19,770 nucleotides of DNA from a virus (IMGVR_UViG_2695420763_000003); one strand, 5' to 3'. Positions 3,899 through 19,112 are shown, numbered from the stretch's first letter. Numbers and translations: made by a program. Notes: generated by a model not told the origin, from the letters alone.

Positions 3899-4392
3899 TG
3901 TTGCCCCCACAAACAGACTTCACGCTCAATCTCGCGGCGAGTCATCAGCCCTTTCCATTGCTTACCGCCAGCGTATGTCCAGCGCCGTAGCTGATCACAT
4001 GCGCCTTTGATATCGCCCTGGTTTATTTTGCGAAGAAGCGTCGATGTTCTGAAATTGCCAGCGCCCACGTTGTAAACGAACGAGTAAAGAGCGCCGCGCG
4101 TTGTTTCCGGTATATCGACGTTGATGTACGGGTTAATTTGTCTGGCGACCGTGGCAAGGTCTTTATTCAGGAGGGCTTTGCATTCTGCTTCGGTATACGT
4201 TTTACCGGGCATGATGTCTTTTCCGGTGTGTCCGTGACATACAGTCCATACGCCAACGATATCTTTGTATGGTATGTAGCTGACACCTTCCAGACCATCG
4301 TTACCACCTGGACCAGTGATGAGCACAGACGCTATGGCAACAGCCCCACTACCAATAGCAGCTGCAACAGCCTTGCGTAATGACGGCGACAT
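3895..4392 (-). CDS. R: SAR endolysin (P21 R-type lysozyme)
   Basis: 165-aa [60 protein letters not shown]... is near-identical to the phage 21 R endolysin as recalled, with its glycine/alanine-rich N-terminal SAR segment. Confidence 0.9.
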
Positions 4393-4598
4393 TATTCACC
4401 TCTCGCAGCCTTACGCTTATCTTCTTTAATCTTGAAATAAAGATTTGTCAGATACGTCAGCAGGCCAAACAGCAGACTTCCCAGCACACCTATTGCCACC
4501 CACTGGGACGGAGAGACTTTGTCCAGCAGCTGCAGTAACCAGTATCCCGTCCCCACCGCTGACGTGGTGTATGACACACCTGTTGTGATTTTTTCCAT
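4392..4598 (-). CDS. S: Pinholin (S21-type holin)
   Basis: 68-aa [68 protein letters not shown] resembles phage 21 pinholin S21. Its stop overlaps the R start. Confidence 0.85.
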
Positions 4599-4640
4599 CT
4601 GATGTATGTCTCCGTCACCGCCGACAGAAAATGAAAGTAA

Positions 4641-4679
4641 AGAAAAACAAAAAAGCCGCCAGTGTCACCCACTGACGGC
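4641..4679 (-). terminator. Intrinsic terminator about 45 nt upstream of the S start, in the late-transcript direction
   Basis: Minus-strand RNA GCCGUCAGUG-GGUGA-CACUGGCGGC forms a 10-bp stem (one G-U pair) followed by UUUUUUGUUUUUC. Confidence 0.5.
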
Positions 4680-4853
4680 CAACGCCGGGAGCCGTGATTA
4701 TGGCATTCAGGCTCTGCTAAAAATGCCAGATAACATTCCGGCCTCCCCTGATTCAGGTTATAAATGACACAATATCTTGACAACATCCGTCACTGTCTGT
4801 CAGAAAATGTACTGCCATATAGAAGCAACATGTGAAGTACATCTATCCTTTTG

Positions 4854-4896
4854 AGCCAGCACCTCTCCACCGAAAGTCAGTGCTGGCTGTTTTTTT
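4854..4896 (+). terminator. Plus-strand intrinsic terminator (unit A)
   Basis: 9-bp stem AGCCAGCAC (4854-4862) / GUGCUGGCU (4880-4888), 17-nt loop, then GTTTTTTT. Confidence 0.5.
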
Positions 4897-5003
4897 CCTT
4901 AATAAGGCATCTGTAACTGAAACAATCCGCATATTGATAATATATTGACAGGCATCATTGCTGTCTGTGAAAAATAAGTCTCTACAAACATATAAGGCCT
5001 TTT

Positions 5004-5045
5004 AGCCAGCGTCTTCTTTTTCAGGTCAGTCGCTGGCTTTTTTTA
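5004..5045 (+). terminator. Plus-strand intrinsic terminator (unit B)
   Basis: 8-bp stem AGCCAGCG (5004-5011) / CGCTGGCT (5031-5038), 19-nt loop, then TTTTTTT. It ends exactly at the stop codon of the convergent esterase gene. Confidence 0.5.
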
Positions 5046-6896
5046 TTATGCTGCCGGTGCATTTATCTCCAGCATCAGACTTTCTATCTCAACGCCATAC
5101 GCTGCATTTTTTGTAACATCCGTCAGCGTCAGCGCATTCAGTCCCAGTGTCAGACTGTCTTTTATAACCTGGAATGCCGGGCCAGCCACTCCATTCAGTT
5201 TCGGAGTAACCGTGGCACTGCCGGCGGTGAACACCAGCTCCAGCGTCTGCCAGTCGTTACCGTAATCGCCGAACTCCCCCAGCTTCGTGTTTCCGGCTTT
5301 CCTGTGATGCATCAGATTCACTCTGCCGTCAGTGGTCTGAGTGAAGTACGACATCAGGAACGGATTACCGGTACCCGTCATCGCCACACCATCAGGAACG
5401 GGAGCATCCGTATACAGATAAATCCCCAGCCCGAACTGATTGTTGGTCAGTGCGCCTGACAGGCGGAACTTACAGGTCAGTCTGCCGCCCTGTGTCAGCA
5501 GGGTAATTGCGTCATCCACCGGATGCGTCAGGGACCAGGTTTTATTGCTCTGCTTGGTGATCTTAAATACACCATCTGACAACTGAATTCCGCCATCCTT
5601 AATGCTCCAGCCCTGCGCAGCAGCCTCTCCGGCTGCCGGCAGCAGGGAGATTGTGCGAACGGACGTATCTGCAGACGGACCCGATGGCGTGTTGCCGCCG
5701 GGCGAGGGTTTGATTTCCGGTGCCTTACCACTGATGAAGGCTGAGGTGCGCCCGGCTGCGTTCAGAATAGCGGTTGCCAGACGATCCGGAATAATGCTCC
5801 TGCGCGCCCATGAACTGAAATGTGTCGGGCGGTTTGATGATACCTGGTTTCCATTCGTTCTCGATGCCGCACCGTAATATCCTGATGCCGGAATATCCGG
5901 ATCTTCTGCCGGCGCGTTAGTGGCGGTATTGACGCCGTTACCGTCTGTCATGAAGGGCACAAAATAAACGCCCTCACTCTCCCTGTTTTTGTACGCCCCG
6001 TAAATGGTGTTGTACTGGGTGCCGTAGGTATTTTTCCAGTAATACGTCGTGTCACCACAAATCCACGGCACATCTGCAGCACTGCCACCATGGCACTGCG
6101 CGTTAAACACGGAGAGGTCAGCACGAAACTGTGTCAGCATGGCTGTAAACAGCGCAGGTTGCTGTGCGTGGGTGGCGGCGCTCATGTCAAACTCTCCCTG
6201 CATCCAGCACACCGCCAGCAACACATTTTTCGGGTTCTTCTGTAATGCAGCTTTGGTGCGCGCAATCAGGTCCTGATATAACGGTTTACCCACACCCCAG
6301 CGCGCCGAATCCTGGCTGGCCCCCGTGTCCGCACTGAATGTCCCCTCCGCGCCCTGGGTAAATGCCGAACCACCACGACAGCATGGTACCAGCAGGATCC
6401 CCGCGTTATTCGGGATATACGGGAGCAGTTTTTTGGCAATATGTAAACCCTGGCCGACACAGCCGTACTGCCCTTTGCTCAGGTCTGCCTTCGGATGATT
6501 CAGCGTACTCATATCCTGCACATCATGCAGGCAGTGGTCGGCCGGAATAATATCGTTATATCTGCAGGCAGCCCCACCCGGCGTCACTGTACTGCGGCGC
6601 GCCAGCTGTTTAATGCGCGGATCCGGAGCATCGTATGAATCCGGCAGCGGAAGCCCTTCACCGTAAGCCATGGCATTGGATTGCCCGGCCAGTACGATGA
6701 CGTAGTACCAATCCGGCTCAGTTGCACCACTGACCACCACATCACCTTCTGCTGTAATCGCCTGCATCAGGGTATAAGGGGTTATGGCCACCGGACTACC
6801 AAACGGCTGCCAGCCCTCTTTCAGTTTGTGTGTCAGCTTTTCCGCAAGGTCTGACGGCGACGCCGCCCTGACAACATCATAATGTTTAAATGTCAT
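5046..6896 (-). CDS. nanS-p: Prophage sialate O-acetylesterase, NanS-p type (DUF1737 N-domain + SGNH/SASA esterase + C-terminal domain)
   Basis: 616-aa ORF. The N-terminus MTFKHYDVVRAASPSDLAEKLTHKLKEGWQPFGSPV is DUF1737-like. VIVLAGQSNAMAYGEG carries the GQSN motif of SGNH/SASA esterases. The C-terminal ~200 aa are Gly/Thr-rich and beta-rich. Position between Q and S matches nanS-p genes of Stx and related prophages. Confidence 0.8.
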   Translation of the reverse strand: MTFKHYDVVRAASPSDLAEKLTHKLKEGWQPFGSPVAITPYTLMQAITAEGDVVVSGATEPDWYYVIVLAGQSNAMAYGEGLPLPDSYDAPDPRIKQLARRSTVTPGGAACRYNDIIPADHCLHDVQDMSTLNHPKADLSKGQYGCVGQGLHIAKKLLPYIPNNAGILLVPCCRGGSAFTQGAEGTFSADTGASQDSARWGVGKPLYQDLIARTKAALQKNPKNVLLAVCWMQGEFDMSAATHAQQPALFTAMLTQFRADLSVFNAQCHGGSAADVPWICGDTTYYWKNTYGTQYNTIYGAYKNRESEGVYFVPFMTDGNGVNTATNAPAEDPDIPASGYYGAASRTNGNQVSSNRPTHFSSWARRSIIPDRLATAILNAAGRTSAFISGKAPEIKPSPGGNTPSGPSADTSVRTISLLPAAGEAAAQGWSIKDGGIQLSDGVFKITKQSNKTWSLTHPVDDAITLLTQGGRLTCKFRLSGALTNNQFGLGIYLYTDAPVPDGVAMTGTGNPFLMSYFTQTTDGRVNLMHHRKAGNTKLGEFGDYGNDWQTLELVFTAGSATVTPKLNGVAGPAFQVIKDSLTLGLNALTLTDVTKNAAYGVEIESLMLEINAPAA

Positions 6897-6984: not shown

Positions 6985-7079
6985 AAGAAATGAAGAAGGC
7001 CACGCAGTTGCGCAGCCTGATAAACCCTGGTTAAAATCCACACGATAACAACACAACAATATCAGTATCTCATGCTATT

Positions 7080-7105
7080 GCCCGAACCCATTCGGGCATT
7101 TTTTA
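7080..7105 (+). terminator. Plus-strand intrinsic terminator
   Basis: GCCCGAA-CCCA-TTCGGGC (7-bp stem) followed by ATTTTTT. Confidence 0.45.
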
Positions 7106-7110
7106 CCCAT

Positions 7111-7141
7111 AAAAAATGCCCCTCCGGAGAGGGGCATTTTT
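7111..7141. terminator. Bidirectional intrinsic terminator
   Basis: AAAAAA-TGCCCCTC-CGGA-GAGGGGCA-TTTTT: 8-bp GC-rich stem with an A-run on one side and a T-run on the other. Confidence 0.55.
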
Positions 7142-7338
7142 GCATGCACATTCTTTTTCTTGCATGGTGCCGGGTGCCTCCCGGTGAATTCAGTATCAGC
7201 ACCTGAATCCGCGATTATCACATATACCTACTTGCTGATTGCCCCTCCGCACAGGGGGATTCACCATGCAGTAGTATTTTTAATAAACAGCAAATAAAAA
7301 AATCAAGCATTATGCAGGCTGTTTCTTTTTATCACCGG

Positions 7339-10765: not shown

Positions 10766-10921
10766 TTACTCCTCAGGTTCGTAAGCTGTGAAGACAGCGA
10801 CCTCCGTCTGGCCGGTTCGGATTCGTACCTCGCAGAGGTCTTTCCTCGTTACCAGTGCCGTCACTATGACGGTTAAACAGATGACGATCAGGGCGATTAA
10901 CATCGCCTTTTGCTGCTTCAT
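10766..10921 (-). CDS. hokD: Type I toxin Hok (HokD/RelF-like, 51 aa)
   Basis: MKQQKAMLIALIVICLTVIVTALVTRKDLCEVRIRTGQTEVAVFTAYEPEE with AAGGAG RBS. The track ORF 10766..10978 adds an in-frame 19-codon upstream extension (mok-like). The upstream leader carries a 9-bp inverted repeat (11043-11051 / 11070-11078). Confidence 0.9.
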   Translation of the reverse strand: MKQQKAMLIALIVICLTVIVTALVTRKDLCEVRIRTGQTEVAVFTAYEPEE

Positions 10922-11166
10922 AGCCTGCTTCTCCTTGCCTTTCGGCGCGTAAGAGGCTAACCTACATGTGTCTAGCATGAAATTGGCCTCAGATTAATGT
11001 TAGGCGTCTTGCAGGACGCGTAATGTTAACTGGGGCTTTTCTCTGTCTGCCTTACGGTGGCATGCCCGAGGCAGACAGCCTCAAGCGCCCGCAGCAATTC
11101 TACTTAACTCTCGCTTTACCGCAAACCGTTTTTACCCGATATGGGAATTCCCATATCGTAATGAAT

Positions 11167-16158: not shown

Positions 16159-16584
16159 TTAGTGCATCACCACAGCATTCCCTGCCGGGCCGCCGCGATT
16201 CATCTGGTCATACAAAACAACCGCTGACGCAACAAAATCATCGACATCCTTCACCAGCCGATCCCTCCGTTCGACGATCTCACGGTAATATTCAGAACTG
16301 TGGCTGCGCATACGGGCCACCAGCAAAGGCGGCATCGCCTTTTCGATCGCCGGTAACAGAGCCTGCATTTTTTCAACAGCATCAGGGGTGTCTTTATCCA
16401 GCCAACGGAAAATTTTCTGGGTATTACGGGCCAGGGCTTCCGGATGGCTGTCGTCATACAGTTCCGGGAACGTCATTCCCAGCTCGAAATACGCTTTGGT
16501 AATTTTCGCAGCCGGCACTTTTTCGCCGTCCGGATGCGCCCAGACATTCATCGCCATGCGGATGTGTTCATGCTTGATTTTCAT
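16159..16584 (-). CDS. YdaT-like protein (Rac prophage family)
   Basis: 141-aa MKIKHEHIRMAMNVWAHPDGEKVP... Sits immediately downstream of the Cro-like gene, with an AGGAG RBS. Family assignment is from memory of Rac ydaS-ydaT synteny. Confidence 0.55.
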   Translation of the reverse strand: MKIKHEHIRMAMNVWAHPDGEKVPAAKITKAYFELGMTFPELYDDSHPEALARNTQKIFRWLDKDTPDAVEKMQALLPAIEKAMPPLLVARMRSHSSEYYREIVERRDRLVKDVDDFVASAVVLYDQMNRGGPAGNAVVMH

Positions 16585-16849
16585 GAATCAAGCTCCTAGA
16601 AAGTGGTTGTGTTAACGTTTTGGTATCTTCCAGCTCGGGCCAAATATTCATCCAATCAAAAGGCCTTAGTTGCTGACGTGTAACTTCACCATTACTGGCT
16701 CGCTCAATAAGGACACATAACGATGCCCCTAACACTTGACCTTTACTCAATGCCTTTCTTAGATAACCGATGCTGGTACCACACTCGCATGCAAACATAC
16801 GCTGTTCATCTGACGAAAGAGAATTGAGAAATATTCTTAATTCTTCCAT
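16568..16849 (-). CDS. Cro-like HTH regulator (YdaS-like)
   Basis: 93-aa ORF with AAGGAG RBS, divergent from the repressor gene. The pattern FACECGTSIGYLRKALSKGQVL...IERASNGEVTRQQLRPFDW resembles YdaS/Cro-type HTH proteins. Confidence 0.6.
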   Translation of the reverse strand: MEELRIFLNSLSSDEQRMFACECGTSIGYLRKALSKGQVLGASLCVLIERASNGEVTRQQLRPFDWMNIWPELEDTKTLTQPLSRSLIHENQA

Positions 16850-16949: not shown

Positions 16950-17369
16950 ATGGACAAATATGAATTTAGACGACAGCAACTCATCAAAATTCGTGATGAG
17001 AAATGCGATGGTAAAGCGGTTAACGTGGCCAGAAAGATCGGGCGCGAGCCTTCTTATGTATCAAGAATGTTGTACCCAGAGGGGAAAAAGGGAAAAAAAC
17101 GGATCGCTGATGATATGGTGGAGATTATCGAAGAGTCCTTTGGGTTACCCCGGGGATGGATGGATGGTATCGTTTCATCATCAACGAACACAGCCTCCAG
17201 TTATGAAACAAGGGTTCTAACGCCACGACAACGTATTTTTTTAGATCTCTTAGACGAACTGCCAGAAAGTGAAGCGGATAAATTATTAAAAACTCTTGAA
17301 GAGAAAAAACAGTATTACAATATGATCTACGAAGAAATCCGTAAAAAGAAAGCACAAAACGCATCATAG
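16950..17369 (+). CDS. dicA: Prophage repressor (DicA-like HTH protein)
   Basis: 139-aa ORF divergent from the Cro-like gene, with HTH segment AVNVARKIGREPSYVSRML. The C-terminal ...LLDELPESEADKLLKTLEEK resembles the DicA C-terminus as recalled. No SD sequence upstream. Confidence 0.7.
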   Translation: MDKYEFRRQQLIKIRDEKCDGKAVNVARKIGREPSYVSRMLYPEGKKGKKRIADDMVEIIEESFGLPRGWMDGIVSSSTNTASSYETRVLTPRQRIFLDLLDELPESEADKLLKTLEEKKQYYNMIYEEIRKKKAQNAS

Positions 17370-17403: not shown

Positions 17404-17450
17404 CAAAAATTTACCCATAGGTATTTACTTTTTAAATACCTATGGGTATC
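17404..17450 (+). promoter_or_regulatory. 15-bp perfect palindrome (operator-like) doubling as a terminator-like hairpin downstream of the repressor gene
   Basis: ACCCATAGGTATTTA (17404-17418) and TAAATACCTATGGGT (17424-17438), followed by ATCCTTCTTTTC. The half-site ACCCATAGGT is related to the ACCCACAGGT repeats at 16881-16913. Confidence 0.5.
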
Positions 17451-17634: not shown

Positions 17635-17790
17635 ATGGATACTATCGATCTTGGCAACAACGAATCTCTGGTGTACGGCGTGTTTCCCAACCAGGACGGC
17701 ACGTTCACCGCGATGACGTATACCAAAAGCAAAACGTTTAAAACCGAAAATGGTGCCCGTCGCTGGCTGGAAAGAAACTCAGGTGAGTGA
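17635..17790 (+). CDS. ydfA: YdfA-like small protein (DUF1391-like, 51 aa)
   Basis: MDTIDLGNNESLVYGVFPNQDGTFTAMTYTKSKTFKTENGARRWLERNSGE with GAGG RBS. The track ORF starts further upstream at 17554. First gene of a dicB-type operon by synteny. Confidence 0.7.
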   Translation: MDTIDLGNNESLVYGVFPNQDGTFTAMTYTKSKTFKTENGARRWLERNSGE

Positions 17791-17791
17791 T

Positions 17792-17920
17792 ATGGATTTC
17801 GACACAATCATGGAAAAGGCTTACGAAGAATACTTCGAAGACCTTGCCGAAGGCGAAGAAGCTCTCAGCTTCAGTGAGTTTAAACAGGCGCTTTCCAGCT
17901 CGGCAAAATCTAACGGCTGA
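17792..17920 (+). CDS. ydfB: YdfB-like small acidic protein (42 aa)
   Basis: MDFDTIMEKAYEEYFEDLAEGEEALSFSEFKQALSSSAKSNG. The ATG lies 1 nt after the ydfA stop. Too short for the ORF track. Confidence 0.6.
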   Translation: MDFDTIMEKAYEEYFEDLAEGEEALSFSEFKQALSSSAKSNG

Positions 17921-17949: not shown

Positions 17950-18168
17950 ATGCAGAAACGAGAACCCGTCATAATCGCGCCAGACTATACCGATGATGAA
18001 CTTTATGAGTGGATGCGCCAGAAAATTAATGCAGCGCAGGATCTGAAATGGGCTAATGAAGCCAGGGCTAAGCAGGCTGAAAATCTGTCCGCTCTGGAGC
18101 AGGATATCACCAATCTGGAAAAAGCAGCGGCATTAAGCATTGCCAGAATGATTACATACCCGCGTTAA
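17950..18168 (+). CDS. ydfC: YdfC-like protein (72 aa)
   Basis: Track ORF MQKREPVIIAPDYTDDELYEWMRQKINAAQDLKWANEARAK... with GAGGAA RBS. Length and position match ydfC of the Qin dicB operon. Confidence 0.65.
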   Translation: MQKREPVIIAPDYTDDELYEWMRQKINAAQDLKWANEARAKQAENLSALEQDITNLEKAAALSIARMITYPR

Positions 18169-18507
18169 TAGCTAACCAACGAAGCTAAGGTTGGTAATTA
18201 AGGAGTTCTCCACGGGTGAGGTGGGGTGCGTGCGCCGGACACGGGTGAGCATCCGGCACTGACAGTTTACTGAAAGGATATTTCCCTGAAAAGTCAGACC
18301 ATAACGCGAAAGCGCACGGCGAGGTAGCTGGTTCATAGATAGCCTGTCGTTAAATTTTCGTCGACCGTGCGCTTCCGGTTGTGGCAATCCGCGAAATGGC
18401 GCGGCGGTAAGTATGGAGGGGTTATTCCTTCCCCGTTGAGGACACCGGGTTGTCAGGTTGACCATACGCTTAAGTGACAACCCCGCTGCAACGCCCTCTG
18501 TTATCAA

Positions 18508-18561
18508 TTTTCTGGTGACTTTTGGCGGTATCAGTTCTACTCCGTGACTGCTCTGCCGCCC
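18508..18561 (+). ncRNA. dicF: DicF small RNA (ftsZ-targeting sRNA processed from the dicB operon transcript)
   Basis: TTTCTGGTGACTTTTGGCGGTATCAGTTCTACTCCGTGACTGCTCTGCCGCCC followed by TTTTT matches the 53-nt K-12 DicF sequence as I recall it, with about 3 substitutions. It ends in a GGCGG...GCCGCC terminator hairpin. Coordinates are from my own line indexing and were not re-verified to the base. Confidence 0.75.
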
Positions 18562-18735
18562 TTTTTAAAGTGAATTTTGTGATGCGGTGAATGCGGCTAA
18601 GCGCACGCGGAACAGTTAAAACCAAAAACAGTGTTATGGGTGGATTCTCTGTATCCGGCGTTAATTGTTAACTGGTTAACGTCACCTGGAGGCACCAGGC
18701 ACTGCATCACAAAATTCATTGTTGAGGACGCGATA

Positions 18736-18924
18736 ATGGAAACGTTATTACCAAACGTTAATACGTCTGAAGGTTGTTTTGAAATTGGTGTCACTATCAG
18801 TAACCCTGTATTTACTGAAGATGCCATTAACAAGAGAAAACACGAACGGGAGTTATTAAATAAAATATGCATTCTTTCAATGCTGGCCCGTTTACGTCCG
18901 ATACAAAAAGGATGCTGGCAATGA
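18736..18924 (+). CDS. dicB: Cell-division inhibitor DicB (62 aa)
   Basis: METLLPNVNTSEGCFEIGVTISNPVFTEDAINKRKHERELLNKICILSMLARLRPIQKGCWQ with GAGGA RBS. Matches my recollection of DicB. The track lists it with a longer upstream extension (18631). Confidence 0.8.
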   Translation: METLLPNVNTSEGCFEIGVTISNPVFTEDAINKRKHERELLNKICILSMLARLRPIQKGCWQ

Positions 18925-19112
18925 ATACAGCATTTGCACTTGTTCTGACATTTTTTCTTGTTTCCGGAGAGCCAGTTGATATTGCAGTCAGTGTTCACAG
19001 GACAATGCAGGAGTGTGTGACTGCAGCAACCGAACAGAAAATTCCCAGTAACTGTTACCCGGTCGATAAAGTTATTCACCAGGATAATAACGAAATCCCG
19101 GCAGGTCTTTAA
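18921..19112 (+). CDS. ydfD: YdfD-like small protein (63 aa) with hydrophobic N-terminus
   Basis: MNTAFALVLTFFLVSGEPVDIAVSVHRTMQECVTAATEQKIPSNCYPVDKVIHQDNNEIPAGL. The ATG overlaps the dicB stop (ATGA). Confidence 0.75.
   Translation: MNTAFALVLTFFLVSGEPVDIAVSVHRTMQECVTAATEQKIPSNCYPVDKVIHQDNNEIPAGL

Follow-up and report, generated by a model that had tools for sequence, protein, structure and literature searches.

The viral sequence IMGVR_UViG_2695420763_000003 (19,770 nt; the window) contains, on the basis of open reading frame (ORF) calls, Rfam matches and the annotation of homologues, a Qin-like prophage immunity region. We describe here the untranslated leader that separates the gene ydfC from the small RNA (sRNA) DicF. 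It is well supported that this leader is made up of two layers, a very probable RNase III stem (18307-18377) and a conserved 115-nt domain (18378-18492). Processing of the leader is supported but already published; the new part is the domain, a portable, pseudoknotted RNA that is widespread in phages of Enterobacterales.

The ydfC-dicB interval and its processing

The genes and features of the region are as follows, in window positions:

16568-16849, - strand: dicC, Qin-like immunity region
16950-17369: dicA, Qin-like immunity region
17635-17790: ydfA, encoding a DUF1391 protein
17792-17920: ydfB, encoding a protein without family match
17950-18168, + strand: ydfC, the last coding gene 5' of the leader, so named in K-12 and Tritos homologues
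18169-18306, + strand: mosaic 5' part of the leader, with a direct repeat and a local hairpin GCCGGA/TCCGGC (18234-18257)
18307-18377, + strand: long-range inverted repeat, arms 18307-18319 and 18365-18377
18367-18377, + strand: flank of 11 nt, GUGCGCUUCCG, conserved and immediately 5' of helix P1
18378-18492, + strand: conserved pseudoknotted RNA domain of 115 nt in the leader's 3' third, with four helices and a pseudoknot of 9 bp
18378-18385 and 18485-18492, + strand: helix P1
18389-18393 and 18400-18404, + strand: helix P2
18418-18421 and 18431-18434, + strand: helix P3
18447-18455 and 18475-18483, + strand: helix P4
18406-18408 plus 18411-18416, with 18462-18470, + strand: pseudoknot
18493-18508, + strand: 16-nt linker GCCCUCUGUUAUCAAU, RNase E site AU|UUU at its 3' end
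18509-18566, + strand: DicF sRNA, 53 nt (18509-18561), including its intrinsic terminator, and U tract
18571-18718, + strand: long stem-loop after DicF, 19-bp arms 18571-18589 and 18700-18718
18737-18925, + strand: dicB, assigned by ORF frame and so named in homologues
Next after dicB: ydfD, Qin-like immunity region

The interval from the ydfC stop to the dicB start spans 568 nt and is 97.7% identical to K-12; part of this 568-nt query was matched in 4,719 of 5,426 complete E. coli genomes. The untranslated gap between ydfC and DicF measures 340-341 nt, bearing out an earlier note on this DNA that had described about 340 nt of ORF-poor sequence, and + strand ORFs in the leader are no longer than 29-36 aa. 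Some phage records carry a 111-aa minus-strand ORF as 'hypothetical protein'; the corresponding TTG ORF of the window (18172-18507, - strand) was rejected as coding on account of 1-nt indels in close relatives (CCCC vs CCCCC in helix P3) and of stem covariation. A Pfam search with the ydfC product returned zero family matches. The first gene whose expression requires read-through at the DicF terminator is dicB.

DicF exists in a 53-nt and a stable 190-nt form, as reported by Ragunathan et al. 2023 (PMC10448788) in confirmation of Faubladier 1990. The 5' end of the 190-nt RNA is RNase III-dependent, and this RNA builds up in stationary phase and upon RNase E inactivation in rne-ts cells (PMC10448788), while the 5' end of the 53-nt form is made by RNase E (PMC10448788; PMC9438474). 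The 568-nt interval of the window, which holds the long-DicF locus, is 97.7% identical to the K-12 region of that study (PMC10448788, Fig. S1). Counting 190 nt back from 18561 (18561-190+1) places the 5' end at approximately 18372, within the 3' arm of the inverted repeat, and the latter is therefore very probably the RNase III stem that makes this end, as placed from the RNA length only. It is well supported that the domain, the 16-nt linker and DicF together constitute the known stable long DicF, from which an RNase E cut at 18508/18509 frees the 53-nt RNA. The proposal that the leader is a substrate of RNase III and RNase E is thus supported by published work (PMC10448788). The earlier note had also suggested that the leader could carry extra small RNA species; the 190-nt RNA is indeed one, but was already known, and its conserved structured 5' body had not been singled out. 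Covariation was found in 18378-18492 and the 190-nt RNA is stable, as opposed to a leader without compensatory changes that yields no stable RNA apart from DicF.

The inverted repeat comprises 13 nt at 92% complementarity (CGAAAGCGCACGG, 18307-18319; CCGTGCGCTTCCG, 18365-18377) and can be extended by eye to a duplex of approximately 18 bp, allowing one mismatch and one bulge. It had been recorded as a 10-bp repeat at 18306-18315 and 18368-18377; the repeat is present and longer, but its 10-mers lie at 18310-18319 and 18365-18374. Arm variants in relatives are single changes only, roughly half preserving a wobble pair and half creating a mismatch, and no compensatory double changes occur in the arms. 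Here, then, comparison among relatives brings no support beyond that already given by experiment. A promoter scan ahead of the domain gave no internal promoter and none was found in the dicBF operon (PMC10448788); an internal promoter feeding the domain was therefore rejected.

DicF itself matches Rfam RF00039 (18510-18561, 71.5 bits vs a gathering score of 48). Alignment to K-12 strain XL1-Blue reveals two differences, not the approximately three noted earlier: 18520 G>T (DicF nt 12), within the 5' single-stranded part, and 18537 T>C (nt 29), within the 3' region used for pairing to ftsZ and pykA (PMC5069750). A 72-nt DicF species is also known (PMC5069750; PMC9438474). Its computed end (18509+72-1 = 18580) falls in the 5' arm of the 19-bp inverted repeat, and for this reason the 18571-18718 stem-loop is the probable RNase III site for the 3' end of this species. 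The spacer between DicF and dicB (18559-18768, + strand), which this inverted repeat closes, gave an STnc100 match of 34.7 bits, below the gathering score of 47. Hairpin UCACCNGGAGGCACCNGGCAC is common to this spacer and to the true copy of STnc100 (7105-7295).

All features noted earlier in the leader are present, at positions shifted by 2-4 nt. In the 5' part, the direct repeat CACGGGTGAG occurs exactly at 18211-18220 and 18240-18249; the first copy lies 2 nt to the left of the reported 18213-18222, while the second is where it was reported. The window thus holds two matches for an expected number of 0.03, a count attained by 0 of 200 shuffles. In relatives, the leader 5' of about 18228 is replaced by other sequence and the first copy is missing or different, and the direct repeat was rejected as a functional motif. 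The second copy lies in the loop of a small hairpin, and this loop is variable. A further small hairpin, CCCUGA-AAAG-UCAGGG (18279-18302), covaries in relatives (CCC/GGG, CUC/GAG) and is mismatched (ACC) in the window and in K-12. Full leader plus DicF is more stable than shuffled sequence (z = -3.2; 0 of 100 shuffles equally stable). Overall, the internal repeats are of little interest, except for the inverted repeat as the probable RNase III stem.

A conserved and portable RNA domain

All covariation in the leader lies within 18378-18492, 3' of the inverted repeat. It was assessed in two alignments, A1 (75 distinct sequences) and the model-based A3 (39 diverse sequences); the sequences are related, mostly from close Enterobacterales, and the nested helices are aligned to the model. 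In A3, 94.4% of cells are paired (94-95% over A1 and A3), and 14 pairs have changed on both sides, vs 7.9±1.3 in shuffles, with 0 of 500 shuffles reaching 14. The corresponding values for A1 are 12 pairs vs 5.9±1.6, and slid controls gave 2-5 double-changed pairs on A3 and 0-6 over both alignments.

Helix P1 (GUUGUGGC/GCUGCAAC) is missing in phages P1 and P7 and extends to 11 bp (GUUGCGUGCUGU/ACAGCGCAAC) in a divergent clade of loci. Helix P2 is CCGCG/CGCGG, with zero double changes. Approximately 12 different stems occupy the place of helix P3, whose loop UCCU is mostly conserved. Helix P4 is GGGUUGUCA/UGACAACCC in the window, GAGUUGCCA/UGGCAAC in phage P1, and fully re-coded as GGGUAACCA/UGGUUACCC in Izhakiella. 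The pseudoknot joins J2/3 (GGU..GUAUGG) with the P4 loop (CCAUACGCU); although outside the covariance model, it is paired in 39/39 sequences of A3, one of its pairs being UA (32), CG (4) or UG (3). The unpaired blocks CGGCGG-AAG and CAGGUUGACCAU-CGC-U-AG are invariant. The invariance of such long unpaired blocks implies a specific binding partner.

The covariance model (R1) finds a single copy in the window, at 155 bits; a second copy near AgvB/STnc100 was ruled out, with 10 bits the best other score in the window. An Rfam 15 cmscan at E<=10 yielded no family match in 18169-18509, all matches (DicF, a weak STnc100-like match and a chance match to tsr32) being located 3' of 18509, and no Rfam match was obtained for the divergent-clade loci. 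ARAGORN reported 0 tRNA genes in 18100-18800, on which ground a tRNA-like element or RNase P substrate was rejected, and a literature search for the invariant 12-mers returned unrelated human primer matches only. A likeness between GGCGGUAAG and the ops element of RfaH, GGCGGUAG, was dropped on account of a 1-nt insertion and a variable key T (C in P7). Pairing of the P3 loop UCCUU with GAGGA of J3/4 or of the dicB ribosome-binding site was likewise rejected, as J3/4 is not conserved and phage P1 is without such a gene. The sequence GTTGAGGAC is present at 18435-18443, in the J3/4 linker, and again at 18721-18729, in the dicB ribosome-binding site; the repetition is probably due to chance, J3/4 being unconserved in relatives.

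Searches with blastn show that the leader piece at approximately 18378-18500 travels independently. The domain is present in Stx2c-converting phages, cdtI, Ayreon, 2H10 and Salmonella phage F1055, in phages P1 and P7 just 3' of the C1-controlled ban promoter, and in hundreds of P1-like plasmids. Pattern scans added viral contigs and, from species-dereplicated genomes, Escherichia spp., Shigella, Citrobacter, Trabulsiella, Serratia symbiotica, Erwinia tracheiphila and Izhakiella; a further scan brought out the divergent clade, and pattern matches beyond Enterobacterales appeared random. Each element carries one copy, on the sense strand of a repressor-controlled early operon, which is either the early-left operon of a lambdoid prophage or the ban operon of P1/P7. 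The distance from the promoter varies: approximately 950 nt in the window, with three small genes between; a 290-nt untranslated leader in Stx2c-type phages, where a near-consensus PL-type promoter is followed by this leader, the domain, an sRNA with terminator, and genes; and 35 nt from the transcription start in P1/P7, where the ban promoter is separated by the domain and a canonical terminator from the tRNAs and ban, located 0.6-2.6 kb downstream.

An intrinsic terminator follows P4 by 43-125 nt in 129/129 instances with sufficient flank. At least 10 distinct sRNA bodies, DicF among them, occur after the domain, with a variable single-stranded 'seed' preceding the terminator. A long stem-loop comes next after the sRNA terminator, and downstream of the unit one finds dicB or kil, genes for recombination, or tRNAs together with ban. 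It is well supported that the downstream sRNAs are exchangeable RNAs of the Hfq type with a strong intrinsic terminator, and that the domain is a portable unit. In Erwinia, Izhakiella, Serratia, Trabulsiella and F1055 variants (L161, around 4660-4760, and L162, L144, L159 and L006), the sRNA terminator is a long hairpin with AGGAG followed by AUG or GUG, and a tiny ORF may run through it.

The divergent clade (L170, L172, L177 and L179) departs from this layout. Here the domain lies in approximately 1.8 kb of ORF-poor RNA and is directly followed by a long stem-loop, with no adjoining sRNA or terminator; the next terminator is about 680 nt off. In L172 the stretch (4000-5833; similarly in the other three loci) is GC-rich and ends in a 13-bp terminator. 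Separate pieces of it are met again in phages of Klebsiella, Citrobacter and Dickeya as well as in plasmids of Pantoea, Serratia and Leclercia, which suggests a mosaic of several unannotated structured RNAs.

The edge of helix P1 is conserved beyond the helix itself. Relatives carry boxA-like stretches at this edge (GUGCUCUCUUC, AUGCUCUUUCC or CGCUCUUUUC, the last also in the divergent clade), and the 11-nt flank is conserved despite differing sequence further upstream. A boxA-like YGCUCU core adjoins helix P1 in 29 loci with five independent flanks, the boxA consensus being YGCUCUUUA.

Natural deletions of the domain also occur. Rac-SA53, phage 666R9 and phiSTEC1589-Stx1c are without it and retain the upstream leader and RNase III stem, an sRNA plus terminator, and then the long stem-loop and kil, with a deletion junction of GGUUGU|AAAUAAC; in Shigella phage 75/02 Stx, only a 3' remnant is left. 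At the Rac-type and phiSTEC1589 loci (L165 2340-2440, L166 and L167 2680-2720) the loss between the P1 strands appears precise (GGUUGU|AAAUAAC|GACAUUGCUG), for which reason the domain behaves as an insertion/deletion unit. In two Stx phages the domain has been lost wholly or for the most part; both keep the sRNA cassette and encode an antiterminator N (PF25694, 1e-25). A tblastn search with two N proteins gave no match at any of 157 loci bearing the domain, of which 132 have 1.5 kb or more of upstream sequence, and a family search indicates that YdfA (DUF1391), YdfB and YdfC (no family) are not N.

Elsewhere in the window, a perfect 16-bp palindrome in the dicA-ydfA interval (17412-17448) is terminator-like on either strand and may serve as terminator of dicA, as an operator near dicBp, or in both ways. 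AgvB (7043-7104, + strand) adjoins a convergent STnc100 (7105-7295, - strand), which ends with a strong terminator hairpin opposite AgvB's own terminator. A sok antitoxin RNA at 10916-11090 (- strand, Rfam 115 bits) implies a hok/sok module within the prophage.

Possible functions of the domain

We tentatively favour, at less than even confidence, a role for the domain as a cis-acting element that promotes transcriptional read-through. The nascent domain would act in cis on the transcribing RNA polymerase, either alone, as the put RNA of phage HK022 does, or with Nus factors on the boxA-like stretch at its 5' edge. Some polymerases would then pass the sRNA terminator and the Rho-prone untranslated RNA, such that the operon could give both a terminated sRNA and its downstream genes without need of an N protein, with RNase III and RNase E trimming the RNA afterwards. 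Four observations point in this direction: the position of the domain before strong terminators with downstream genes (P1 ban, dicB) on the same promoter, the long untranslated stretches in which it is found, the edge that resembles boxA, and the fact that relatives bearing N have lost it. For put RNA, too, a stable RNA trimmed by RNase III has been reported (PMC9378689). That the domain would represent a class of phage cis antitermination RNA unrelated to put, independent of N and possibly using Nus factors via the boxA-like edge, is a more speculative step, which we regard as possible but doubtful.

A number of points weigh against a read-through role, which is inferred from structure and context. 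K-12 has the domain, yet its main transcript is the 1,146-nt ydfABC-dicF RNA that ends at the DicF terminator (PMC10448788). A 1,608-nt read-through RNA appears only upon RNase E inactivation (rne-ts) and nothing longer than ydfD was detected (PMC10448788), so antitermination in K-12 would have to be partial or non-processive. The likeness to boxA is poor in the window (GUGCGCUUCCG) and there is none in phage P1. The N search used two queries only, and the anticorrelation with N is imperfect, as Rac-type relatives are without the domain and without a recognisable N. Covariation counts are inflated through shared ancestry, and the domain shows no sequence or model similarity to putL or putR and differs from them in architecture.

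Alternatively, the domain could serve sRNA biogenesis as the structured body of a pro-sRNA of approximately 180-190 nt, a possibility we consider real though unlikely. It would shield the sRNA seed from upstream mRNA, block exonucleases and set the RNase III (5') and RNase E (3') cuts, with release of the active short sRNA being timed, possibly through an adaptor protein in the manner of RapZ for GlmZ. The 190-nt RNA is indeed stable, RNase III-dependent and elevated in stationary phase and in rne-ts cells (PMC10448788), and an sRNA with terminator is nearly always found next to the domain. The layout is the same in phage P1, where the start site lies about 180 nt from the terminator, predicting a primary RNA near the 190 nt of long DicF. 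However, a simple hairpin would suffice for insulation or stability, leaving the invariant unpaired blocks unexplained. Furthermore, Rac-type and N-bearing relatives keep the sRNA, terminator and RNase III stem without the domain, and the divergent clade has the domain without an adjoining sRNA or terminator.

The compact, pseudoknotted fold, the invariant loops, the processing sites on either side and the single copy per element would also fit an independent trans-acting RNA of approximately 137 nt (~18372-18508), freed by RNase III plus RNase E and serving as a decoy, sponge or cofactor for a host or phage protein, with the sRNA merely in the same transcription unit. Published northerns were probed for dicF (PMC10448788) and would for that reason have missed a separate 5' product. 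This reading nevertheless leaves unexplained why the domain is so tightly linked to a terminator downstream and why it stands on the sense strand of early operons; no stable RNA of about 137 nt has been reported and no neighbouring protein gene is common to the lambdoid and P1 contexts. We judge it improbable.

Could the domain be a neutral spacer, merely a ribonuclease substrate whose likeness among phages reflects recent descent and recombination? Most copies are >85% identical and from one bacterial order, the direct and inverted repeats show no sign of selection, and natural deletions are tolerated. Against this stand the compensatory changes in four helices and the pseudoknot, the re-coding of P4 in Izhakiella and the approximately 12 versions of the P3 stem, as well as a loop that is invariant even though the flanks on both sides have been replaced; we hold this explanation to be quite improbable. 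Least probable is a riboswitch-like attenuator, in which a ligand or condition would flip the DicF terminator through alternative pairing: the complex aptamer-like fold that precedes a terminator, the pairing of J2/3 (GGCGGUAAGUAUGGAG) with the terminator 3' strand in the minimum-free-energy fold of the 190-nt RNA, and the GGCGG start of most associated terminators are countered by a spacer to the terminator that varies in sequence and length (43-125 nt) and so provides no overlapping expression platform, by a phage P1 terminator (GCCCAUC/GGUGGGC) that makes the alternative pairing impossible, by the clade without a nearby terminator, and by the lack of an Rfam riboswitch match.

If the domain does control read-through, this would explain how the early-left genes of N-less temperate phages are expressed in spite of strong sRNA terminators, and how phages come to exchange sRNA cassettes. 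Lambdoid and P1-like early operons would then carry terminator-ended sRNAs as plug-in cassettes with downstream genes still expressed, and such an antitermination RNA would sit beside DicF in most E. coli genomes. Should the domain instead govern processing or bind a protein, it would add a further regulatory layer to the toxic dicF, dicB and kil. Whichever function holds, it is a candidate new RNA family for databases. DicF is among the oldest known bacterial sRNAs; the conserved domain makes up most of its long precursor and also heads the P1 ban operon, so that 'precursor sequence' becomes a defined RNA element, in which the U/A vs C/G pseudoknot pair offers a natural compensatory contrast.

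Comparison with known systems

The closest known system is the long DicF of the K-12 dicBF operon, which is the same locus at 97.7% identity, with an RNase III 5' end, a 53-nt RNase E product and a terminator 3' end. Judged by length, the domain corresponds to the 5' two-thirds of this RNA. The long-DicF papers examined treat the extra 137 nt as precursor sequence, and no fold, pseudoknot, conservation beyond dicF loci or function was found described for them in these papers, in Rfam or in sequence searches. The phage P1 genome record (AF234173) labels 68472-68573 as a 'dicF-like region'. This region takes in the domain's 3' half in phage P1 together with the terminator after it, and the blastn match is actually to the leader domain (query 221-317, window 18389-18485), not to DicF.

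SroC, CpxQ and MicL, which derive from 3' untranslated or intra-operonic regions, are likewise released by RNase E out of a longer mRNA, with the cut at a site of the RN|WUU type that lies downstream of structure (PMC9438474). Unlike for the DicF-type loci, a conserved exchangeable pseudoknotted domain common to different sRNAs is not known for their precursors. With respect to riboswitches, an aptamer 3' strand that overlaps the terminator is not a feature of the domain.

The put sites of HK022 (putL and putR) and the domain have in common a structured nascent RNA located upstream of terminators in the repressor-controlled early operons of N-less temperate phages, and both yield a stable processed RNA. 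HK022 put binds the zinc-binding domain of beta' and thereby suppresses, in cis, terminators that lie downstream. A single, putL-only arrangement is present in HK639 according to its annotation. The architectures differ, put being approximately 70 nt with two stem-loops and a triplex, as opposed to 115 nt with four helices and a pseudoknot; any likeness in activity is putative. Model R1 did not match HK022 putL or putR, the domain itself not having been scanned with a put covariance model. A blastn search with putL matched 24 of 50,697 phage records, 0 of which carry the domain, and the phage sets with put and with the domain do not overlap.

Finally, lambda-type nut sites (boxA and boxB) and the boxA of rrn and CRISPR operons resemble the domain as it occurs in many relatives, where a boxA-like pyrimidine-rich stretch (YGCUCUUU/C) is followed about 11 nt later by hairpin P2. 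Both nut sites and the domain occur near the start of early-left operons, in long untranslated RNA. In contrast to nut, domain loci have no N gene, P2 is without a GNRA-like boxB pentaloop, the structured part is far larger than boxB, and the boxA match is weak in the window and absent from phage P1. Judging from these likenesses, put RNA and lambda nut may be regarded as functional analogues of the domain, which is a member of neither family.
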